From: Paludibacteraceae bacterium
GTDB taxonomy: Bacteria; Bacteroidota; Bacteroidia; Bacteroidales; Paludibacteraceae
Assembly (NCBI GenBank): GCA_905233255.1
Contig: CAJOCN010000004.1
Span: forward strand, 12,868 to 76,867
Reading direction: 5' to 3'
Length of the DNA: 64,000 bases
Part shown: in pieces, positions 11,619-28,221 of the stretch
Layout of the letters: each line of letters begins with the position of its first letter
Numbering within the stretch: the stretch's first letter is position 1
Position numbers and translations under genes: made by a program
Notes under the pieces: generated by a model
The model's database searches: none
Told to the model about the DNA's origin: nothing
The model's input: only the letters and a program-made list of their open reading frames with translations

Positions 11619-12417
11619 TCTCCAGCAGCTGCGCGATCGTCTCGTACAGCCAATCCATCATTTCCGGGCGGATCTTCAGCCCGCTCACGGAGGCTAAGAT
11701 ATACGGGTACGCCTGTGTCATTCTCAGTTTAGATATCTCATTATGCGGCGCTTGGGCTAACTGCACGAGCGCCGCTACCGGTACACTCTCGTTCTTATAA
11801 CACGGCGTCTTTCCCGACCACGGCGTGCCATAGACCGTCACCTGCCCTGCCTCGTCGATACGCACCGCGGGATTATCATCATTGAGCAGCGTGGCATCCT
11901 CAAACGCCGCTTTCCACTGCTGCGAATGGGTGCTCTTGCCGGTGCCGGAATGACCGAGGAACATATACCCTTTGCCGCCACGTACCGTCACGGACGAATG
12001 GAAAAGAAGTGTCTTTTTCCCCGCTGTAGCAAAGGCGAAAGTAAGCATCGCAGCATTGTCTATCGCAAACCGCGCACTCTCGTCCCGCAGGTACAGCCGG
12101 ACATCCCGCCAATCCCCGCTGCAGACCATTGCACTGACAATCTCGCCCTCGCGGCTCATCGACACCGCAAAAAGCCATTCCTCCTCGCGGCGGTACATCT
12201 CTATGCGCGGCATATCGGCATCCGAACTATCGGTATAGAGGTGCTCCCACCCTTCCGTAGAGGGGATCGGTTCATCACTCGCGTGGATGATGAAGAGCGG
12301 CGTCGAGCCACTCGGTGCTATTCTGAAAGGAGCGTAGTTAGGCAGCCGTTGGAGATATTTCTCTTCGGCCTCAATGCCGAACACATAGCCGGCGACTTGG
12401 TAGTATTGTTTCGTCAT
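11542..12417 (-). CDS. HPr-kinase-related P-loop protein (HprK C-terminal-like)
   Basis: P-loop GHSGTGKSTHS in a context resembling the HprK/ScmC-type kinase fold. Assignment is by eye only. The 3' end overlaps the convergent mtaB by 77 nt. Confidence 0.4.
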   Translation of the reverse strand: MTKQYYQVAGYVFGIEAEEKYLQRLPNYAPFRIAPSGSTPLFIIHASDEPIPSTEGWEHLYTDSSDADMPRIEMYRREEEWLFAVSMSREGEIVSAMVCSGDWRDVRLYLRDESARFAIDNAAMLTFAFATAGKKTLLFHSSVTVRGGKGYMFLGHSGTGKSTHSQQWKAAFEDATLLNDDNPAVRIDEAGQVTVYGTPWSGKTPCYKNESVPVAALVQLAQAPHNEISKLRMTQAYPYILASVSGLKIRPEMMDWLYETIAQLLETTPVYRLECLPNPDAARLCAQTCSL

Positions 12418-12422
12418 AATCG

Positions 12423-15179
12423 TTAGAATTCTTTTACTTTACGTCCGCAGAGGGTGAAGAACGGACAGAACGACGGACACTTGCTCTCCTCGCACTGCGG
12501 GTACTCGGTGGCGGTCATGACCTCCTTGAGTTTCGCTTGCAGCGCCTCGTAGAACTCGCTCGCTACTGAACGGTAGTCATGCACCGTCTCGTTCGCCACG
12601 TCGATAGTCGTCACTATCTCTGTCAGTTTGCGACGGCAGAAGAACAGGTTCGGCTCTATCGGCAGCCCCGTCTTATCGGCTTGCATCACCGCGTGGCTGT
12701 ATATCATCGTCTGTCGCATGTAGCCCTTGTCCTCGCTCGCCATCAGATCATCCCAACCGGCAGACATCTTCTGCGTGTGCGTCAGGTCGTTGTACCCGCC
12801 GGACTTGTAATCCACTACGCGGAGCGCCTCGTTCCCTTCCTCGCCGTATATATCCAGACGGTCGATCGTACCGCCTGTCTGCACTTCGCCCACGCCTTCA
12901 ACCTCCACAGGGAAGTACCGTGGCTGCTCCAAGAGGTATATCTGCAGACCCTTTCTCGCATCCTCGCGGTCGCGCTCCAGAATATTCCGCACATAACCTT
13001 TGATAATCACGTTTTCCGCCACGTGCCGCTCAGGCAGGTAATGATCTTCCGTCTCCTCCGGATAGTCCTCGCGCCACTCGTCGTTCATCGCCTGATACGC
13101 CGCCATGAGCGCATCCTGCATCTTCCCTTCGTCCGTCCGCACCGCCTCGATAGCTTCCGGCGTCACTCTTACCGGAGCGGTGTTGTCGCAGTGCATGAAA
13201 CGAGTGTAGATATACTCCATCGCGTGGTGTACAAACGACCCTATCGTGTTGCTCTCGAACTGTCCGTCCTCTTTGTTCTCCTGCCGTTTCAGCCCCTCTA
13301 TATACTGGTGGTAGAACGATCTCGGGCAGGATATATACGTGTTCAGCGCGCTGGGCGAGAGGCGCAACCTGCCCATTGAGGCGAGCGACTCTTTGCGGGG
13401 CTCGACGGGCGTGTAAGCCTGCACGGTGTTCGGCTCTTGCAGCACGCCGCGCGTCACCTCGAACTCGTCCGAATAGAGGATCTGCATGATAAACCGCGAC
13501 ATGCCTCTGCTGCCGCCTATCGTGTCCGGCTGACCGTACAGCAGCGTTGTGTGACCCGAGCGGCTCAACAGTCTGAAGAAGTTATACGCATAGACCGTGG
13601 CGCGCTCGTCCGGGGTCTGCATGTGGTATGTCTTGCGCAGGTAGAACGGTATAAAACTGGTGTCCGCCTGTCGTTGCGGCAGGATTCCCTCGTCCACGTT
13701 CAGTAGCAGCAGCCTGTCGAAATCCAGCAATCGTGTCTCCAGCACACCCATTACCTGTATATCCGTCACCGGCTCGCCGTGGAAAGGCATGGAGACCGCC
13801 TCCATCGCCCTGCGCATCAGCATCCTTAGCAGTTTGAGTGTGAATGGCACATCGCCTAAACCGGTGGCGAGAATGAGCCGCATTTGGTTGATGATCTTAT
13901 GCACCTGGTATTCGGACTCCAACACCAGTAACTCTCGCCAGGTGAGGTCTTGGCAGTCCTCCGCGGGCTGGTCTGCTGCCGTCTCTTCAAACACCGCTTT
14001 CACCAACTCGTCCATGATCGGAGGTCCGACGACCTCATCGGCTTTGCCGCGCGCCTTGTCGTACAGCCACGCCACCACGCGGGCATAGACTGCCGTGTTA
14101 CGGAGCGGAAAACCCTTGGTGATATTCACCGGTTCGGGCGTTTCCTGTCCCTCTAAGGTGATTGCCGGCAGGGCATAGATCACAGGCTCCAGCATCGTCT
14201 CGTCGCAGATCACCACACCCACTTTCTGGCCCTTCGCCGTATAGTTCTCCTCCAGCCACCGGTGCACGTACTGGGCCTGCGCCTCTTTCGACGCACAGCT
14301 CATCACCCTCACCTGCATCTTACCGTCCCGCGTCTCGTGCTTCCCGTTGTCACCTAAGATGCCGCTGTTCAGTCGGGCGAAGGAGAACGCCTTCGTGTTG
14401 GTCTCAAAATCCCGCACGTAGTCCCAATAGAACTGCGCCTGTCCTTGATCGCGGAGCCGCATCATCAGTTCGCGCTCTACCGGCAGCAGGTAGTTGAAGC
14501 CCACGAAGATATATGTTCTACCCTTGATTTTCTGTTGCGTTTCCTCGTCCTCCCAGTGCTCAATCACGGCTCTCTGCCGCAGCCCCGGATAGCCTTTTTG
14601 CTCCGCCTCCATCTCTGCGCGCAGACCCTTGTATAGCACATACAACTGCCGCCAAAGCTCCTCGTACCGGGCTCTCACGGAGTCCTCGCTGTACGACGTC
14701 TGATCCTCGCGGAAGAGCGCTTTGAGACGCGCCTCCACCTCCTCGTCCAACTGCCATTGCTCCAACTCATGGGCAGCAATCGTGTTGTCAAAGAAATTCG
14801 GCACTTCGGCTGCCGGCATGGACGCATCCACGTTCGTAAAATCGGCTATCATCTGCCGTCCCCAACCGTAGAAGAGGTCAAGCGGCATTGGCTCCTCGCC
14901 ATCGTGCATGGATGCGCAATATAACTTATACAGCCGCAGCACGGTGAACAGCTCGTCCTCCGGATAGAGCGGCGAGAGTTCGTCTTGCAGCTGCGTGAGG
15001 GTCTGTACCTGCGGTGCCCAGACGGCTTGCGCGTGTTGTTCCTGTTGCAGTCGCAGCAACTCATCCTTCAGCACTAATCCCGCACGATGGGACGGCAGCA
15101 CAAGCGTCGTGTGCTGTAACTGTTGCCAATCGATACTCGCCAAGATCGATTCCGCCGTTGTTCTCAAGAAACTATCCAT
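12423..15179 (-). CDS. AddB/RexB-like PD-(D/E)XK nuclease subunit of a helicase-nuclease complex
   Basis: 918 aa. C-terminal nuclease region (VVDYKSG) with one upstream Cys (YISCPRSF) and a terminal Cys cluster (QCEESKCPSFCPFFTLC), as in iron-staple AddB nucleases. Overlaps the addA-like gene by 8 nt. Confidence 0.8.
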   Translation of the reverse strand: MDSFLRTTAESILASIDWQQLQHTTLVLPSHRAGLVLKDELLRLQQEQHAQAVWAPQVQTLTQLQDELSPLYPEDELFTVLRLYKLYCASMHDGEEPMPLDLFYGWGRQMIADFTNVDASMPAAEVPNFFDNTIAAHELEQWQLDEEVEARLKALFREDQTSYSEDSVRARYEELWRQLYVLYKGLRAEMEAEQKGYPGLRQRAVIEHWEDEETQQKIKGRTYIFVGFNYLLPVERELMMRLRDQGQAQFYWDYVRDFETNTKAFSFARLNSGILGDNGKHETRDGKMQVRVMSCASKEAQAQYVHRWLEENYTAKGQKVGVVICDETMLEPVIYALPAITLEGQETPEPVNITKGFPLRNTAVYARVVAWLYDKARGKADEVVGPPIMDELVKAVFEETAADQPAEDCQDLTWRELLVLESEYQVHKIINQMRLILATGLGDVPFTLKLLRMLMRRAMEAVSMPFHGEPVTDIQVMGVLETRLLDFDRLLLLNVDEGILPQRQADTSFIPFYLRKTYHMQTPDERATVYAYNFFRLLSRSGHTTLLYGQPDTIGGSRGMSRFIMQILYSDEFEVTRGVLQEPNTVQAYTPVEPRKESLASMGRLRLSPSALNTYISCPRSFYHQYIEGLKRQENKEDGQFESNTIGSFVHHAMEYIYTRFMHCDNTAPVRVTPEAIEAVRTDEGKMQDALMAAYQAMNDEWREDYPEETEDHYLPERHVAENVIIKGYVRNILERDREDARKGLQIYLLEQPRYFPVEVEGVGEVQTGGTIDRLDIYGEEGNEALRVVDYKSGGYNDLTHTQKMSAGWDDLMASEDKGYMRQTMIYSHAVMQADKTGLPIEPNLFFCRRKLTEIVTTIDVANETVHDYRSVASEFYEALQAKLKEVMTATEYPQCEESKCPSFCPFFTLCGRKVKEF

Positions 15180-18100
15180 GTACTTCTCTCAATTCGTTTT
15201 TACGGGCGAACCACAGATAGCCGTGCACAGGGCTGTAGCCCATGCGCCGCAGCGCCTCCATGTATTCGCGCACTTGGGTCAGGTAATGTTCGTCCCATCC
15301 GCCGAACTTATAATCCAGCACGACGGCTTCGTTCGTCTCGGGGTTGATCATCACGCGGTCGGGACGCAACTCACGGTGATCCATGTATATCGCCTCCTCC
15401 AGCCGCAGTTCCCAGGGTTTGGTAAACCAATCCCGCATCTTCGGACTGCCTTCCCACGCCGAGGAGATCAAGTCTCTCAGTTCCTCTCTTTTCTCTTTGG
15501 AACCGATTTCTCCGCGGGTCTCGAAATCGTCCAGCACTGCCTCCAACTCATCGGCTTTGCGGATATGCGCGAAGATTTCGTGGCAGAGCGTGCCTTCGTC
15601 CATCCGCGCCACGCGCCGGTACGCCTCGTCGCCGTAGTCCGTATATAGCGCACCTTCCTGCGATTGCACGAACCGCACGTGGTCACTGTTCGCCCACAGC
15701 TCCGCCTCTACGGCTTCATTTTCAATTTCTAATTTTTCATTTTTAATTTTTAATTCCCCTCTCTCATACCCTTCCTCGCCGGCGAAATCCAGCAGATACT
15801 TACCCACATGGTTGCACACGCCGCGTTTGCCGTCTTTCTTCACCGAATAAGAGGTGTTTACAAACAGGTTGTCCTCGGCTCTCGTCAGCGCCACGTAGAG
15901 CATATTCAGGTTGTCGATCCGCAGGTTCATCTGTTCCTCCGCGTACTCCGCCGCATAGTCCGAATCCGCCATCTCTGTTCCGTAGAGCACCGGCACATAA
16001 TCACCCCGCTCGTCAATCCGAGGGGACACCTCGCACCACACTTTGGGTTTATGCCGTCCGTCCTCTTTCTCCCAGTGGCAGAAAGGCACGAAGAGCGTCT
16101 GCGCCTGCAGTCCCTTGCTCGCATGAATGGTCATGATCTGAATCGCGTTGGTGGCAGTCACGGGAATCGGTTTGGCGTGCATCGTGTCGTCCCAATAAAC
16201 GAGAAAATCCTCAATCGAACTCCCGTACGTACCCACGTACTCGCGCGTGCGGTCCAATAAGGAGTTGAGATACGCCGTTTCGGTGCCTTTATACTGCCCT
16301 TTCTCGTCCGTCAGCAGTACGCGCATCAACTCACTCACCGCCTCATACAGCGGCGTCTTGGCGTTGATTGTTAATTGTAAATTGTGAATTGTAAATTGTG
16401 CATTGTTCACCATCCTCCCCGCCACTTCATCGCCGTGCACCAGGTATCGCAGCGCCGCGATGATGAGTTGCACGTCTGCCGAAGCGTCGAGTTGGAAACT
16501 GTCGGCCGACACCACAGCCGTCTTCGTCAGCAGCGGGAACTGCTCCTCGTCCAACCCGGCTTTCATGTCGGTAATGGCGACAGCCTCCGACCTAAACCGC
16601 ACCAAGACCATCATATCCTCCGGCCGCACACCTCTCTGCAGCAACGCCTCCATCTGCATAAACATATCCGCCGCCAGTTCATCGTCCTTCGCGTTCGGGA
16701 ACGCCTTGAACCGCACATAGCCGCCTTTGTTGTCCGCTTGGTAAAAACTGTCCAGCTTCTCCGGTTTGTATCCCTCGCCGTATATCCGTTCCGCCAATTT
16801 TCCTAATTCGTCATTCGTAATTCGTAATTCGTCATTCGTAATATAGTCAAACAACGCCAAATTGAACTTCACCACCTCTTCGCGGCTTCGGAAATTCCGC
16901 GTCAGCGAGGTGAACCGCTCATTGATGCTCCCTTTGCCTCTAACCTTTCTACTTTCGTCCTTTAATTCTTCCATAATGTGCCAATCGCCGTTGCGCCAGC
17001 GGTAGATGGACTGTTTGATGTCCCCCACGATCAGCAACGTATTACCTGCGCCGGCGAGCACGTCGCGCAGCAGCTGTTCTATTACGCTCCACTGAAGCCG
17101 GCTCGTGTCCTGAAACTCATCGATCAGCACGTGCTTGTAGCGAATACCTGCTTTCTCCAGAATAAAATCCGCATCTCCGGTCTTCAGCGCTTTGCTCAGC
17201 GTGCTTGCCGTACGGGCGAGCAGCGCACTGTTCGCTTCCGCCAAGTCGCGCAGGATAATAGCTTGCAGCGACGCCATCAGCTCCTGATCCCTGCTGAACT
17301 TGATCGTCAGGAAGAGTGTGTTGTATGTCTTTGCCAACTCCTCGGCTATCGCCGTTGCCTGCTCCAACCCTTTCGCCTCTAACCCTTCGCCTATAACCTT
17401 TCCCCCTTCGCCCTTTAGTCCGCGGAAACGGTCTTTGGCAGGCACTTTCTCCGGTTTCTCCACAGACCGCCTCAGCCGGTCGTACGCCGCTTTGGAATAG
17501 CGGTTATAACCTTCGTATTGTGCTTTGCATGTGTCCAGGATAGTCTTCAACTCCTCCACTCGCTCGTCGTTCTGCCACTGCCGCTCTACCTGCTCGCGGC
17601 GACGTTGTATCGCCTTGGCGTCAAAGAGGATCTTACCCTCCGCGTCTAACATCTGCACCGACTCGTTGTACAGCTCTTTGACCATCGCCACCAGACTGCC
17701 GCGCACATCCCACTGGCTCTCCTGATCCAACTTGAGTTGCATGTAGTCCTCTAATATCTCCTTGTCCGCCTCCGTCATCTCCGTGCTCAGCAACTCATCC
17801 ACAGCCTTCCTTATCACATGATCCACATCGAGCTCCGTACTCTGCCCTGCCCCGATGCGCAGCACACCCGCCAAACCCGACAGCAGACTCTGCAGAAACG
17901 AGTCTATCGTCTGTACCTGCACGTTGTCATAGTCTAACAGCATTTTTCGGAAACACTCGCCGGCGCGAGCTCGCAGCACACTCTCCGGCGCACCCGCGTC
18001 ACGAACCATGAACGAACGCGCGTACTCCATGAACTCGCTCTCGCCGCCTTCCGCTATTCCGTGAAGGCGACCGATGATACGCTCGCTCATCTCCGCCGTC

Positions 18101-18252
18101 GCTTTGTTCGTAAAAGTGATAGCGAGGATCGAGCGGTAATCCTCACCCGACAACAGCAGACCCACGTAGTACGCCGCCAGCGTGTACGTCTTTCCCGTTC
18201 CCGCCGATGCCCTGCATATCGTCACCGGCTTATGTATATCTATCAGTTGCAT
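15172..18252 (-). CDS. AddA/RecB-like UvrD-family helicase with C-terminal PD-(D/E)XK nuclease
   Basis: Walker A ASAGTGKTYTL, VLIDEFQDTS (motif II), TIHASKGLQ (motif V/VI region), C-terminal VLDYKFG nuclease motif. I prefer the ATG at 18252 (MQLIDIHKP) to the TTG at 18276. Carries four in-frame short-repeat tracts. Confidence 0.85.
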   Translation of the reverse strand: MQLIDIHKPVTICRASAGTGKTYTLAAYYVGLLLSGEDYRSILAITFTNKATAEMSERIIGRLHGIAEGGESEFMEYARSFMVRDAGAPESVLRARAGECFRKMLLDYDNVQVQTIDSFLQSLLSGLAGVLRIGAGQSTELDVDHVIRKAVDELLSTEMTEADKEILEDYMQLKLDQESQWDVRGSLVAMVKELYNESVQMLDAEGKILFDAKAIQRRREQVERQWQNDERVEELKTILDTCKAQYEGYNRYSKAAYDRLRRSVEKPEKVPAKDRFRGLKGEGGKVIGEGLEAKGLEQATAIAEELAKTYNTLFLTIKFSRDQELMASLQAIILRDLAEANSALLARTASTLSKALKTGDADFILEKAGIRYKHVLIDEFQDTSRLQWSVIEQLLRDVLAGAGNTLLIVGDIKQSIYRWRNGDWHIMEELKDESRKVRGKGSINERFTSLTRNFRSREEVVKFNLALFDYITNDELRITNDELGKLAERIYGEGYKPEKLDSFYQADNKGGYVRFKAFPNAKDDELAADMFMQMEALLQRGVRPEDMMVLVRFRSEAVAITDMKAGLDEEQFPLLTKTAVVSADSFQLDASADVQLIIAALRYLVHGDEVAGRMVNNAQFTIHNLQLTINAKTPLYEAVSELMRVLLTDEKGQYKGTETAYLNSLLDRTREYVGTYGSSIEDFLVYWDDTMHAKPIPVTATNAIQIMTIHASKGLQAQTLFVPFCHWEKEDGRHKPKVWCEVSPRIDERGDYVPVLYGTEMADSDYAAEYAEEQMNLRIDNLNMLYVALTRAEDNLFVNTSYSVKKDGKRGVCNHVGKYLLDFAGEEGYERGELKIKNEKLEIENEAVEAELWANSDHVRFVQSQEGALYTDYGDEAYRRVARMDEGTLCHEIFAHIRKADELEAVLDDFETRGEIGSKEKREELRDLISSAWEGSPKMRDWFTKPWELRLEEAIYMDHRELRPDRVMINPETNEAVVLDYKFGGWDEHYLTQVREYMEALRRMGYSPVHGYLWFARKNELREVHG
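15715..15756. repeat. Degenerate heptamer array (TTCATTT TCAATTT CTAATTT TTCATTT TTAATTT TTAATTC) inside addA
   Basis: Six units, 42 nt (hand count). Encodes LKIKNEKLEIENEA on the minus strand. Confidence 0.85.
16367..16408. repeat. Heptamer array (ATTGTTA ATTGTAA ATTGTGA ATTGTAA ATTGTGC ATTGTTC) inside addA
   Basis: Six units, 42 nt. Encodes NNAQFTIHNLQLTIN on the minus strand. Confidence 0.9.
16804..16842. repeat. Heptamer array (TAATTCG/TCATTCG x about 5.5) inside addA
   Basis: Read directly. Encodes ITNDELRITNDEL on the minus strand. Confidence 0.9.
17368..17418. repeat. Degenerate CCCTTCG/CCTNTAA array inside addA (reverse-complement relative of the AAAGGCG family)
   Basis: Read directly. 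Encodes GLKGEGGKVIGEGLEAKGLE on the minus strand. Confidence 0.8.
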
Positions 18253-18359
18253 GCCTCTAAACCTTTGCGGCTGCAAAGGTACTATAAATTTTTCAATTAT
18301 GCAAGATTTTCAGCAAAAAATATCGCCTGTGCTTGTACAAGCAATTTTTTTATTATGCC

Positions 18360-18434
18360 GGATCGACGATTTTGTGCAGAATCGCAGATTATTTTGTATA
18401 AAATCGCAGATTTTTCTTGCAAGAATCGGAGATT
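18360..18434 (+). promoter_or_regulatory. Phased direct-repeat array (GATCGACGATT, AATCGCAGATT x2, AATCGGAGATT) abutting a promoter
   Basis: Motif starts at 18361, 18380, 18402 and 18424. The last three are exactly 22 nt apart. The array ends 5 nt before the -7 box TAccTTTG at 18440-18447. Confidence 0.5.
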
Positions 18435-18484
18435 TTCCGTACCTTTGCACCCGAAATCGTTTATACAAACAATAGTATTAGTAT

Positions 18485-18622
18485 ATGGACCTGAATCACA
18501 ACTCCAAAGAAGCACCGATTACCACCGAGGTGTCGAGTGCCGGCAATGTGCAGAAGAAGTACTATACGGCAGACGAAGCTATCGCCTTCCTTGAGCCGCG
18601 TATCCGTGCTATGTTCCAATGA
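18485..18622 (+). CDS. Possible 45-aa small protein (MDLNHNSKEAPITTEVSSAGNVQKKYYTADEAIAFLEPRIRAMFQ)
   Basis: ATG about 38 nt downstream of a TAccTTTG -7 box. It is followed by copy 1 of the 84-nt repeat, which contains a terminator. Too short for the ORF track and no family recognised. Confidence 0.3.
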   Translation: MDLNHNSKEAPITTEVSSAGNVQKKYYTADEAIAFLEPRIRAMFQ

Positions 18623-18716
18623 AAGAAGTCGTTCACACGCAGCAGGCTCTTTTGCAAATAGGTCATTTATTGGACATTTGTTTATAACCCTCGTCACTCA
18701 CTGACGTTAAACAGGA

Positions 18717-18800
18717 CCAGGTCTGACCTCACCGACAGCGTAAAAAAGCGGTGAATAATTTTATATACAGAGTTTCGGGAACGAGGCTCTGTTTTTTTGT
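18717..18800 (+). repeat. Copy 1 of an 84/85-nt direct repeat (contains an AGGTCTGACCT palindrome, a TCACCG/CGGTGA stem and a terminator)
   Basis: Matches 19489-19573 with two substitutions and a one-T length difference (hand alignment). Confidence 0.9.
18768..18798 (+). terminator. Intrinsic terminator inside repeat copy 1
   Basis: CAGAGTTTCG-GGAA-CGAGGCTCTG (10-bp stem including two G-U pairs, GGAA loop) followed by T7. Confidence 0.7.
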
Positions 18801-18863
18801 GCCTGCTTTTCAGCCCGTAGATGCATCAAAATTTGTAAAAATCAAAAATACTTTCCTATATAC

Positions 18864-18894
18864 TTGCGTATTTCAAAAATTATTTGTAATTTTG
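18864..18894 (+). promoter_or_regulatory. Bacteroidetes-type promoter for the DUF4160/DUF2442 pair
   Basis: cTTG at 18864-18866, then a 20-nt A-rich spacer, then TAatTTTG at 18887-18894. ATG follows at 18923. Confidence 0.6.
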
Positions 18895-18922
18895 CAGCGC
18901 AAAATCATTAAACACGGAATGT

Positions 18923-19225
18923 ATGCCAAAGATTTTTGAATATTTCGGATTTGTCTTTTTCTTTTATTCGAATGAACATGAGCCTATCCATGTGCATGTC
19001 ACCCATAAAGGATGTCAAAGTATTTTTGAACTTATCATGGACAATGGCATTTTAGTAGAGATTCGTGTTCGCGAGAAGGCAGGGGAAGAACCGTTGTCAT
19101 CCAAGGATCAAAAGACAGCCGAGGAATTTATTCGGAAATACAGCAAGAATATAATCACCAAATGGATTAAATTCTTTGTTTTAAGACAGGCAGTAAAGAG
19201 TACAACCATTAAAACCAAATTATAA
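18923..19225 (+). CDS. DUF4160 family protein
   Basis: Opening MPKIFEYFGFVFFFYSNEHEPIHVHV matches the DUF4160 signature (FYxNDHxPxHxH). Confidence 0.8.
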   Translation: MPKIFEYFGFVFFFYSNEHEPIHVHVTHKGCQSIFELIMDNGILVEIRVREKAGEEPLSSKDQKTAEEFIRKYSKNIITKWIKFFVLRQAVKSTTIKTKL

Positions 19226-19227
19226 CT

Positions 19228-19482
19228 ATGAACAGACTTTATATAATAGGAGCAAAAGATGCGGGTAACTGTACTGTGGATTTGCAGTTTAGCGACCAAA
19301 CGACCCGCCGAGTAGATATAGGTGACTTCATCCGTCGTCACCCTCATCCGCAATATAATAAATATCTTGACCCTCGCCATTTCCGCCGCTTCGAAATTGA
19401 GGACGGTAATATTGTCTGGGGCAAGAATTGGGATTTGGTATTCCCGGTAGAACAGTTACACGCAGGTGTAATTGAAGATTAG
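19228..19482 (+). CDS. DUF2442 family protein
   Basis: 84 aa, 2 nt after the DUF4160 stop. Has a DUF2442-like layout (VDLQFSDQTTRRVDI ... IVWGKNWDLVFPVEQL). DUF4160 and DUF2442 genes commonly occur as a pair. Confidence 0.75.
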   Translation: MNRLYIIGAKDAGNCTVDLQFSDQTTRRVDIGDFIRRHPHPQYNKYLDPRHFRRFEIEDGNIVWGKNWDLVFPVEQLHAGVIED

Positions 19483-19488
19483 TGCTAT

Positions 19489-19573
19489 CCAGGTCTGACC
19501 TCACCGACAGCGTAAAAAAGCGGTGAAAAATTTTATATAAAGAGTTTCGGGAACGAGGCTCTGTTTTTTTTGT
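19489..19573 (+). repeat. Copy 2 of the 84/85-nt direct repeat
   Basis: See 18717-18800. Starts 6 nt after the DUF2442 stop. Confidence 0.9.
19540..19571 (+). terminator. Intrinsic terminator inside repeat copy 2
   Basis: Same stem-loop as copy 1, followed by T8. Confidence 0.7.
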
Positions 19574-19625
19574 TTCGATAAAAATGCAGATTTTTTTTGT
19601 GGATGTCTAAAAATCTTTGATTATA

Positions 19626-19657
19626 TTTGCATATTTGAAAAAAAATCTATAATTTTG
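19626..19657 (+). promoter_or_regulatory. Bacteroidetes-type promoter upstream of the WYL gene
   Basis: TTTG at 19626-19629, 20-nt A-rich spacer, TAatTTTG at 19650-19657. Confidence 0.6.
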
Positions 19658-19667
19658 CACACTCATT

Positions 19668-19702
19668 CACTTTGTGGGAGTTTGAAGCAGTAATTTTGCA
19701 GC
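19668..19702 (+). promoter_or_regulatory. Copy 1 of a 35-nt island-specific promoter/operator element (CACTTTGTGGGAGTTTGAAGCAGTAATTTTGCAGC)
   Basis: 32/35 identical to 22499-22533. Contains TTTG and TAatTTTG boxes with a 16-nt spacer. Lies 18 nt before the WYL ATG. Confidence 0.65.
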
Positions 19703-19719
19703 CGAAAAATTTAACGCAC

Positions 19720-20661
19720 ATGGAAACGAAGAAAAAACTGAAATCATCAACTGCTTATCTTTTCAACTGCTATATTTGGCTGTTGAACACTATCGCACGC
19801 GGTCCTATTTCACGCGCAGCGATAGACGAGAAATGGGCGCACGCTTCTGCTAATTCATATAAGCAGGATTGTATCCCTGAGAGTAATTTCCATCGTTGGA
19901 AAGACACTATAAAAGAGCTTTTCGGCATCAAAATCAAATGTAACGGGAATAACGAGTACTACATTGAGGAAGCTACCGACTTGCGCGGTGGGGATCTGCG
20001 TATGCGTGCTCTAAACCTTATGTCCGCAAACAATCTACTCAAGGACAGCGAAGAACTATCCGACAGGATTTTGTTTGAGCCTGTTCCTTCCGGAGAAAAG
20101 TTCTTGACTCCTATCATTGAAGCTATGCGTGATATGACCGCCATCAACATGACGTATCAAGGTTTTACGCGTCAAAAACCGGCTACTTTCATCGTTGAAC
20201 CATATTGTCTCAAGGTGTTCAGGCAACGCTGGTATATGCTTGCGTACTCTCCCGGTCTTGATAAGGCGATGATTTACTCTCTCGATCGTGTTCACGCAGT
20301 TGAACCGACCAAGCAGAAATATAAGTTGCCAAAGGGCTTCAATGCAGAAGAGTACTTTAAGAATACGTACGGAGTTACCGGCATGGATGAAGAGCCGGAG
20401 GATATCGAGATATGTATCGATGCTATGCAGGCAAATTACTTACGTACACTGCCTCTCCATTCCTCACAAGAGGAGATGGAACGCAATGATGATTATTCCA
20501 TATTCCGCTTTCATATGGTTCCTTCCTACGAGTTCTTGCAGGAACTTCGCAAGTATGGATCTGACGTGGAAGTGATTTCTCCGGAATCGGTTCGTGCTGA
20601 ATTTAGAGCAGACACTGAAAGTCTATATCGTATTTATAAACAAATGGAATCCTGGGTATGA
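19720..20661 (+). CDS. WYL-domain transcriptional regulator (N-terminal HTH, central WYL, C-terminal extension)
   Basis: FRQRWYMLAYSPG is a typical WYL-domain core. The N-terminal YLFNCYIWLLNTIARGPISRAAI is HTH-like. ATG at 19720 chosen (METKKKL), and it sits downstream of two promoter-like elements. Confidence 0.8.
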   Translation: METKKKLKSSTAYLFNCYIWLLNTIARGPISRAAIDEKWAHASANSYKQDCIPESNFHRWKDTIKELFGIKIKCNGNNEYYIEEATDLRGGDLRMRALNLMSANNLLKDSEELSDRILFEPVPSGEKFLTPIIEAMRDMTAINMTYQGFTRQKPATFIVEPYCLKVFRQRWYMLAYSPGLDKAMIYSLDRVHAVEPTKQKYKLPKGFNAEEYFKNTYGVTGMDEEPEDIEICIDAMQANYLRTLPLHSSQEEMERNDDYSIFRFHMVPSYEFLQELRKYGSDVEVISPESVRAEFRADTESLYRIYKQMESWV

Positions 20662-27300: not shown

Positions 27301-28221
27301 ATGGCTCTGGTGCTTTGCATCGGAGCGTTACCTTTTGTATTTAGCGCGGGCGCGTACGCGGGAGAAAAGGCGAAAGGCAATATAAAGGCGAAAGGCGAAG
27401 GGTTGGTTAAAGGCGAAGGGTTAGAGGCGAAAGAGGCGAAAGAGGCGAAAGAGGAAAAGAGGGATATCGCACAATGGCTCTGGGAGGACTACAAAAAGCC
27501 GGTAGGGCTGACCTACAACGCCCAGGCAAGGTTACAAGCCTCCTACCTCTGGCGCGGTCTGTATGCCGGAGCAGCCAACATACAAGCCTCGGCGAACGTG
27601 GGCTACGGAGGGCTCTATCTGGATATGTGGTGGAACGTCGGCGTAACGGACTGGACTTTCCGCACATTCCAGCCGGAGGTCGATCTGAGTCTCGGTTTCA
27701 ACCGGTGGGGACTGGAGGTGTTTGTACTGTACGTGTATAATTTCAATACGGGCTTCTTCGATTTCGGCAATTATCCGAACAAGGGCAACCGCTTGGAGAT
27801 AGACGCCGCTTACACGCTGAGCAAAAAGATTCCGCTGAAGTTCCTGTGGTCGAGCCGCGTAGCCGCTTCGGATTGCTTTGTCAACGCCGCCGGAGACACC
27901 GTACGGGCGTTCTCCAGTTATTTCGAACTGAGTTATACCCATAACTTCCCGTTGGGGTTCAGTCTGTACGGAGCTGTCGGCATGACGCCATGGAAAAGTA
28001 TCTATAGCGACTTTGACAAGGATTTTGCGGTGGTGAATGTAGAACTCCGCGCACGCAAAGACTGGTCCGTAAGCACCCGTTGCGGCATGATGCTGCAAGT
28101 CCAGCTGACCGTCAACCCGAATGCGCTGGCAACCGACAGAGCCACCGCACGGTGGCACCCCTATGCACCCGAAGGGCAGAGCATAAACGCCAATATTACA
28201 TACGGAGTGTACTTGAAATAA
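27301..28221 (+). CDS. Outer-membrane beta-barrel protein, paralog 1 (TorF/Gcw_chp-like putative porin)
   Basis: Signal peptide MALVLCIGALPFVFSAGAYA (an alternative ATG is at 27250). Shares SYLWRGLY...ASANVGY and MTPWKSIYSDF...FAVVNVELR blocks with the next gene. A K/E/G-rich tract after the signal peptide is encoded by a short-repeat array. Confidence 0.6.
   Translation: MALVLCIGALPFVFSAGAYAGEKAKGNIKAKGEGLVKGEGLEAKEAKEAKEEKRDIAQWLWEDYKKPVGLTYNAQARLQASYLWRGLYAGAANIQASANVGYGGLYLDMWWNVGVTDWTFRTFQPEVDLSLGFNRWGLEVFVLYVYNFNTGFFDFGNYPNKGNRLEIDAAYTLSKKIPLKFLWSSRVAASDCFVNAAGDTVRAFSSYFELSYTHNFPLGFSLYGAVGMTPWKSIYSDFDKDFAVVNVELRARKDWSVSTRCGMMLQVQLTVNPNALATDRATARWHPYAPEGQSINANITYGVYLK
27365..27463. repeat. 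Degenerate AAAGGCG / AAAGAGGCG tandem array inside porin paralog 1
   Basis: Read directly. Translated as GEKAKGNIKAKGEGLVKGEGLEAKEAKEAKEEKR. Reverse-complement relatives occur at 17368-17418, and a short relative at 34614-34637. Confidence 0.85.

Follow-up and report, generated by a model that had tools for sequence, protein, structure and literature searches.

Within a 64,000-nucleotide (nt) stretch of DNA from a Paludibacteraceae bacterium (assembly GCA_905233255.1, contig CAJOCN010000004.1, positions 12,868 to 76,867; hereafter the window), a gene for an AddA/RecB-like helicase-nuclease carries five short tracts of heptamer repeats that are read in frame. These tracts are probably tolerated passengers of a process that spreads such arrays throughout the lineage, filtered by reading frame, stop codons and the structural tolerance of the protein. 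At three of the five sites, more distant orthologues show non-repetitive sequence where the arrays now stand, and near-identical relatives of each tract are found elsewhere in the genome.

The tracts, designated A to E, are listed in Table 1 with their repeat units and peptides. Translation turns each array into a peptide repeat of 7 residues, 7 and 3 having no common factor, and this period, which an earlier note on the same DNA had derived from the 7-nt unit, is confirmed in the translation. The same note had described tracts A, C, D and E as read in frame on the minus strand of an AddA-like open reading frame (ORF), with peptides that match our translation exactly. All four are present where it placed them, but its limits were too narrow for two of them, as the peptide of D takes up 45 nt (16363-16407) and that of A 60 nt (17362-17421). 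It also overlooked tract B, and tract A is degenerate and not a clean heptamer run. Tandem Repeats Finder (TRF) returned arrays at 15715-15755 (periods 7 and 21), 16367-16406 (7 and 14) and 16800-16842 (7 and 21), and a degenerate array of period 14 at 17362-17402 within tract A; the boundaries of TRF arrays are fuzzy. The identity at a lag of 7 nt is 0.73-0.76 for tracts C and D and 0.50-0.56 for tracts A and E. Tract B is 83% identical over 35 nt to positions 17383-17417 within tract A. No inverted or hairpin arrangement was found among the AddA tracts.

Alignments of 120 AddA homologues, and of the DNA of 15 orthologues, indicate that tracts A, C and D are a derived state in which ancestral codons have been overwritten. 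Orthologues at or below 73% identity are without these three tracts and carry non-repetitive sequence instead. The tracts are confined to the window and its nearest relatives, P0002 (95% identical) and P0003 (91%, without tract A). At the DNA level we compared 13 orthologues from the genus, which are 49-71% identical. In most of them, site A is a non-repeat segment of 33-36 nt encoding V[ST]xK[FY]CNADEMA, compared with 57 nt in the window; the segment is present at this modal length in the close relative L059 and in ten more distant orthologues listed, and four of the 13 have a longer non-repeat variant of 72-81 nt. Site C measures 24-30 nt in most of the 13 (II..GDELT) and 51 nt in the window, and site D is a conserved segment of 54-60 nt, usually 57 (..PDVIEQI..), compared with 48 nt in the window. 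It follows from these lengths that the arrays replace ancestral codons: 27-36 nt were overwritten at each of sites A and C, and the net changes are +21 nt at A, +21 nt at C and -9 nt at D. The description of the tracts as insertions in the earlier note therefore needs amending, since they are not simple insertions: at site D a 48-nt array stands for a 57-nt conserved segment. The orthologue alignment it had proposed revealed no case in which the same peptides are encoded by non-repetitive DNA. Site E carries other heptamer arrays in several orthologues (CAACAAT x4.5, GAAAGTT, GTACAAT, CAATCGT and AGCCAAG), and on this comparison we regard it as a hot spot for such arrays. Site B is hypervariable in length, ranging from 8 to 46 amino acids (aa) among 121 orthologues.

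Could the tracts have arisen purely in place, by replication slippage from chance proto-repeats, with the family resemblance among arrays reflecting an AT-rich mutational bias and a filter against stop codons? There is a faint ancestral likeness at two sites (GATGAAC resembles GACGAAT at site C, and CAAATACAA resembles CAATTTACAA at site D), copy number changes by whole units between close relatives, and no target duplications or shared flanks are seen at the AddA tracts, all of which slippage would explain. It does not readily explain the overwriting of ancestral sequence with net changes such as -9 and +9 nt, or the behavior of the arrays in close relatives and across the genome described below, and we consider it an unlikely account of the tracts.

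The alleles of two close relatives, L059 and L060, were aligned with the window at the DNA level (91-95% identity). Among these three alleles, the array-related length differences in addA are 21 nt, corresponding to tract A, which is missing in L059, and 42 nt, corresponding to tract C, which has 12 units in L059 and is 42 nt longer than in the window. The remaining differences are 24 nt at the called start and two 3-nt gaps. Tract D is of equal length in all three alleles. Its units are of the ACAATT type in the window and in L060, whereas L059 has ACGAATK/AAAAATT units over these 45 nt. The L059 allele also has one identical 28-mer in both tract D and tract E, and its tract C is likewise made of ACGAATK units. 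A change of family at constant length, together with a string common to two tracts, is not expected of slippage, and in this sister lineage it contradicts the idea in the earlier note that the tracts arose independently. Tract A extends further 5' in the window than in L060, with no change in length. We considered two independent gains of tract A, in the window and in L060, and rejected them in favor of recombination: blocks of informative sites show that addA is a mosaic of lineages, so that one origin per tract followed by recombination suffices.

The AddA tracts belong to a large population of similar arrays. The source assembly, a metagenome-assembled genome (MAG) of 2.28 Mb in 74 contigs, contains 589 TRF arrays of period 7, compared with 74, 231 and 239 of periods 6, 8 and 9, and the mean GC content of the arrays is 31%, compared with 51% for the genome. 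Period-7 arrays of at least 21 nt account for 494 TRF rows; an equal-sized genome generated with a 5th-order Markov model has 5. Array length has a mode at 30-36 nt, within genes and outside, instead of the decaying distribution that slippage would produce. According to our own rough gene calls, 275 period-7 arrays lie inside coding sequences (CDS), 181 overlap a CDS end and 133 are intergenic. Relative to the coding fraction of 88%, period-7 arrays are enriched outside genes, yet intergenic DNA is not their main location. For in-gene arrays, all three frames of the coding strand are open in 105 of 177 cases and those of the opposite strand in 44 of 177, and units with stops on both strands make up 5% in genes, 15% in intergenic DNA and 28% in random sequence. 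Six genes, addA included, have at least four arrays, where about one such gene is expected, and the arrays thus cluster in tolerant genes. The number of unit classes is too small for independent slippage (113, compared with approximately 314 expected) and the top family is too large (39 copies, compared with at most 14 in 200 random draws). In relatives within the genus the dominant array families differ, and the density in the regions sampled ranges from 0 to 16 arrays per 20 kb.

Near-identical relatives of the individual tracts are found at other loci (given here as contig:position). For tract A, there is an identical 24-mer at C22:4002 and a 29-mer matching at 28 of 29 positions at 27405 of the window; for tract C, a 37-mer matching at 36 of 37 positions at C16:34103; for tract D, an identical 29-mer at C1:67541; and for tract E, a 31-mer matching at 29 of 31 positions at an unlinked locus. 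Tracts A and B, moreover, are of one family. These relationships argue against the four independent insertions proposed in the earlier note, and against events specific to this gene. The AddA tracts are local copies among some 500 arrays in the genome, and therefore no device special to addA is involved.

Further evidence for dispersal comes from composite strings. A 30-nt composite of the AAAGTAC family, GTACAAAGGGACAATGTACAAAGTACAAAG, occurs at 35 sites in the genome and at none in the control (for example at C25:6247-6276 in pheT and at C21:29161-29190). Identical composites at unlinked loci are difficult to reconcile with slippage. Of the 23 copies that lie in genes on the same strand, 21 use one common frame, giving VQRDNVQSTK, even though all three frames are open; under equal frame use we calculate P ~1e-8 by our own arithmetic. 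The bias could result from selection on the peptide or from codon-phase-biased microhomology at AAR...GAR junctions. Three observations, the composite copies, the exchange of family at constant length and the overwriting, make us lean towards spread by templated copying from other arrays, beyond slippage in place. A more far-reaching version is possible, and we hold it only tentatively: an undescribed templated copy-and-paste process, probably primed by microhomology and drawing on a small, species-specific repertoire of donors, may overwrite other DNA in this lineage with heptamer arrays. It would act repeatedly on the same permissive segments of proteins, and the small element E2 (described below) would subsequently be inserted in phase into such arrays. 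If true, the AddA tracts would be footprints of a new and very small kind of mobile DNA, and not products of slippage. Among the marks of mobile elements, near-identical dispersed copies are present, inverted repeats are absent from the AddA tracts, target duplications are not recognizable, and the ends of the arrays are fuzzy.

The host gene encodes an SF1 UvrD-like helicase with a C-terminal RecB-type nuclease and lies beside a gene for a PD-(D/E)XK partner, an arrangement resembling AddAB and RecBCD. Pfam identifies UvrD-helicase (PF00580, 1.5e-38) and UvrD_C (PF13361, 1.1e-10), and a PDDEXK_1 domain (PF12705) is recognized in the C-terminal 171 aa (28.7 bits; cut-off 22). The best full-length fold matches to the AlphaFold model are B. 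subtilis AddA (4ceh_A, E 8e-23) and E. coli RecB. In contrast to characterized AddAB and RecBCD, the sequence lies far below the NCBIfam equivalog cut-offs for AddA, RecB and RecB-like helicase (the best match is NF010485, at 263.9 bits compared with 650), and the partner is shorter, at 918 aa. Because these curated cut-offs are not reached, we refer to the gene as AddA/RecB-like and not as an equivalog. The named AddA homologues are from Paludibacteraceae MAGs. Among 72 AddA homologues, the motifs GTGKT, DEFQD, GDIKQSIYRWR and VALTRA are invariant or nearly so, and D988-Y989-K990 of the nuclease domain is invariant in the homologue alignment.

The ratio of nonsynonymous to synonymous substitution rates (dN/dS) in addA is 0.07 outside the tracts, at dS ~0.3, and 0.63-0.69 inside them. 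These values point to strong purifying selection on the body of the gene and nearly neutral evolution of the tracts. With the helicase and nuclease motifs all conserved, the gene is, as judged from its sequence, functional. That the tracts result from misassembly, or that the gene is a decaying pseudogene, has a negligible probability. The source is admittedly a MAG with 74 contigs, but the same tracts are present in L059 and L060, two independent metagenome assemblies from other samples, and are therefore not assembly artefacts; furthermore, an intact frame, conserved motifs and a dN/dS of 0.07 speak against a decaying gene. The same ratios bear on whether the loops are adaptive, that is, whether selection favors variation in the surface peptides that the repeats encode, for instance as a means of evading phage inhibitors of RecBCD- or AddAB-type enzymes. 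Tract turnover is fast between relatives that are 91-95% identical, and structures of RecBCD with phage inhibitors (5mbv, 8b1r and 8b1t) are among the fold matches of AddA. However, dN/dS in the tracts is ~0.65 and not above 1, the same repeat families occur in unrelated housekeeping proteins and in intergenic DNA, and the evidence at hand links none of the tract sites to known inhibitor interfaces. Selection for loop diversity is thus a very improbable explanation.

The positions of the tracts in the protein are consistent with tolerance. None of the invariant alignment columns falls inside any tract. In the AlphaFold model, whose predicted local distance difference test (pLDDT) averages 72.8, tracts A, B, D and E are low-confidence coil: pLDDT is below 50 at residues 290-293 (tract A), 444-448 (tract B) and 848-892 (tract E), and 58-64 around tract D. 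The region of tract E is predicted to be disordered. Tract C is predicted to be helical and straddles the break between helices H466-487 and H489-499 of a helical hairpin. The presumption in the earlier note that the segments sit in surface loops thus agrees with the model for four of the five tracts, but not for tract C. The tracts also lie outside the catalytic cores, where their presence would have suggested a pseudogene.

The earlier note had further proposed that in-frame arrays of whole units are restricted to multiples of 21 nt. This is true of copy-number changes in established arrays. Among close relatives, the NDELRIT array of PheT changes in steps of 0, +14, +21 and +28 aa (+42, +63 and +84 nt), as tract C of AddA does by 42 nt. 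Births of arrays require a multiple of 3 alone, the net changes at birth being +21, +21, -9, +9 and +9 nt; another array in PheT has replaced ancestral residues and made the protein 3 aa longer on balance. PheT carries the 30-nt VQRDNVQSTK composite as well as NDELRIT and LKIKNE-type arrays, and the latter two types are also present in AddA. Quantization in steps of 21 nt across the genome, inside compared with outside ORFs, could not be detected and was dropped. TRF lengths modulo 3 show no bias in CDS arrays (100/88/87) and none outside CDS; a lag of 21 is best in 18 of 61 CDS arrays and 15 of 40 intergenic arrays, which is no difference; and differences in segment length at the five AddA sites show no enrichment for multiples of 7 aa among the 121 orthologues. 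Since these genome-wide tests gave null results, we retain quantization for copy-number changes only.

These in-frame changes also bear on phase variation, in which 7-nt frameshifts would let the population switch AddAB nuclease activity, phage pressure being one conceivable driver. Phase variation classically acts on non-triplet repeats within coding regions (PMC3315296, PMC8262952), and a gene with four to five such tracts would be expected to switch often. The length differences among relatives, however, are all in frame (21 and 42 nt among the three AddA alleles, multiples of 7 aa in PheT), the same arrays occur in essential genes such as pheT, and the rest of addA is under strong purifying selection. 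In one orthologue, G101, addA is split. We rejected a frameshift caused by an array as the reason, as the break is a deletion unrelated to any array. There is accordingly very little to recommend a switch.

Based on these observations, we suggest the following scheme for the tolerated-passenger reading. The ruminant-gut Paludibacteraceae lineage holds a genome-wide population of short, AT-rich arrays of 7-nt units, typically 30-36 nt long. Arrays would arise at new sites, or be copied onto them, overwriting the resident sequence, and would then expand or contract through slippage and exchange sequence with other arrays. Within genes, those that survive would be arrays that keep the frame, are free of stops on the coding strand and fall in a dispensable segment of the protein. 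In AddA, such segments would be the 1B and 2B regions, the stretch where motif III passes into motif IV, a helical hairpin, and the flexible linker that carries the nuclease domain. The array peptides evolve almost neutrally while the remaining enzyme stays strongly constrained, and we infer that these peptides are functionless.

Several points weigh against this scheme. A dN/dS of ~0.65 over some 90 codons leaves room for a weak function of the tracts, and their translation is deduced from frame and stop constraints. The confidence of the structural model is moderate, and gaps in the alignment partly account for the low pLDDT values. The consensus unit contains a coding-strand stop in 29 of 227 CDS arrays, indicating that some genes are miscalled. 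Families with two or three unit variants can yield long common strings by combinatorics. We had considered long shared strings as proof of copying; for such families they are weak, and for this reason the case for dispersal is built on the composite copies. No donor site, target duplication, enzyme or junction signature was identified for the arrays, so that templated copying is deduced from the shared strings.

Table 1. Features of the addA region (positions in the window). Domain placements of tracts A-E are predicted from motif positions.
Feature	Position	Strand	Description
AddA/RecB-like helicase-nuclease gene	15172..18276	minus	1034 codons counted from TTG
Tract A	17362..17421	minus	degenerate GGCGAAR/GGTTAGA array; peptide GLKGEGGKVIGEGLEAKGLE, aa 286-305; 1B-domain region
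Tract B	16930..16964	minus	decayed copy of tract A family; DESRKVRGKG, aa ~438-449; between helicase motifs III and IV
Tract C	16800..16842	minus	ACGAATK x6; peptide ITNDELRITNDEL, aa 479-491; shortly after motif IV
Tract D	16363..16408	minus	(C/T/A)ACAATT x6; peptide NNAQFTIHNLQLTIN, aa 624-638; 2B-domain region
Tract E	15715..15756	minus	T(T/G)AAAAA-type x6; peptide LKIKNEKLEIENEA, aa 842-855; helicase-nuclease linker
AddB-like partner gene	12423..15179	minus	918 aa; PD-(D/E)XK nuclease; 8-nt overlap with addA
AddB-like variable loop	14898..14934	minus	non-repetitive in the window, CASMHDG (CASMHDGEEP)

The start of addA is probably the ATG at 18252, and not the called TTG, because homologues begin with MQLIDI. 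Directly upstream of this probable start, at 18252-18265, stands one GGTTTAGAGGCA unit from the family of tracts A and B. Further upstream, 18340-19900 is not homologous to the matching flank of L060, the 95%-identical relative, and the neighboring AT-rich island therefore varies between close strains. A search of 12000-19000 returned no Rfam family above threshold.

The AddB-like protein matches Pfam PDDEXK_1 (PF12705) at 2.6e-29 and has weak NCBIfam matches to AddB models. Its variable loop, which is non-repetitive in the window, consists in both L059 and L060 of an AGCAGTC x4 array (YRQSAVSSRPSEEP) and is 9 nt longer there in the three-way DNA alignment. Other orthologues have further variants of this loop, one of which (QNNPINQINPNN) is repeat-like at the peptide level.

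Two small elements, neither of which is present in addA, are associated with arrays elsewhere. Element E2 (CCATACGGCTTCAGCCGATCGTTCGAGGCTTTGCCGAGATAAG) is 42-43 nt long and has 13 copies in the genome, 10 of them identical. Sites outside the window include C17:50250-50292, C3:12434-12476, C3:12492-12534 and C2:47800-47842, and the element is also found in L083-L099. Exact copies of the E2 42-mer number 19 across at least 11 further ruminant-gut Paludibacteraceae/Bacteroidales genomes, and such copies are from cattle, goat and deer gut MAGs only. E2 is always nested in phase (...TC|E2|AA...) within 7- or 8-nt arrays of the CAACTATC/CAAATCTTC type, and no Rfam family scores above threshold at E2. 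By its sequence context, it looks like a nano-element that targets tandem arrays. Element E1 (AAAATTTGACTTGTCAAATAATCGTGCCCCTTTGGGGCTAAG), which has two hairpins, is present in three full and approximately five partial copies beside AATTATC or AATTGTG arrays, at C17:50167-50208, C3:13034-13075 and C21:577-618; one partial copy is in L065. In intergenic DNA, several arrays of the AATTCAC family abut, on the opposite strand, a TAccTTTG-type Bacteroidetes -7 promoter box (aaaggtacaaaaa|array), and intergenic arrays may occupy promoter spacer or -33 positions.

Heptamer repeats are reportedly over-represented among the simple repeats of many bacterial genomes, and little work has addressed how they originate (Rehm et al. 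2015, PMC4692102). Long simple sequence repeats (SSRs) with a heptanucleotide unit are known from cyanobacteria, as short tandemly repeated repetitive (STRR) sequences, and from Xanthomonas and Nostoc, whose repeats are of the GGGNATC/GGGGAYT type (Rehm et al. 2015, PMC4692102, with reference to Mazel 1990 and Mrazek 2007). The arrays described here resemble these repeats in having tandem 7-nt units, few units per array, a preferred array size, hundreds of dispersed sites and a lineage-specific distribution. They differ in being AT-rich and not G-rich, so that no G-quadruplex is possible in them, in forming dozens of unit families in place of one, and in lying, for about half of the arrays, inside conserved genes, where they are read in frame.

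Direct repeats of TAACTGA occur in Beggiatoaceae, cyanobacteria and a few Bacteroidetes, including Paludibacter propionicigenes (MacGregor 2015, PMC4679880). They lie near start and stop codons, with a minority in ORFs, where the stop-free orientation reads LSVISYQ at the periphery of proteins; mobility was raised by the author, and no mechanism was found (PMC4679880). As in our case, these are heptamer direct repeats, some of which are read as a 7-residue repeat. TAACTGA, however, is a single unit, mostly intergenic and proposed to regulate translation, whereas the arrays here use many units and occupy numerous internal positions in housekeeping proteins, and their overwriting and turnover are documented.

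In Nostoc, small dispersed repeats (SDR) nested in heptamer arrays were reportedly described by Elhai and colleagues in 2008. They would resemble E1 and E2, tiny elements (42-43 nt) lying in phase inside short tandem arrays, but are from another phylum and of other sequence, and they bear on the genomic context and not on addA. Palindromic elements of Rickettsia are said, in work by Ogata and colleagues from 2000, to be inserted in frame in protein genes. The likeness is that of selfish-looking short repeats tolerated as added surface peptides; the difference is that the Rickettsia elements are palindromic, 100-150 nt long and fixed in sequence, whereas the tracts here are tandem arrays of 35-60 nt without a palindrome. 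Our literature search found no description of such arrays in coding regions of Bacteroidales.

For the biology of AddAB itself, the tracts are probably of little importance. The addA gene nevertheless provides a compact and datable record of the arrays, in which ancestral and overwritten codons, exchanges of unit, steps of 21 and 42 nt and near-neutral peptides can all be read within one constrained enzyme. Heptamer repeats are a source of steady change in length and sequence in the loops of housekeeping proteins, and annotation and alignment pipelines should expect them. The array families, the composite copies and the nested 42-nt elements offer material with which copying and slippage can be tested against each other. 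The addA gene is a case in which a poorly understood class of repeats rewrites protein loops in a working DNA-repair enzyme of a ruminant-gut Paludibacteraceae bacterium.

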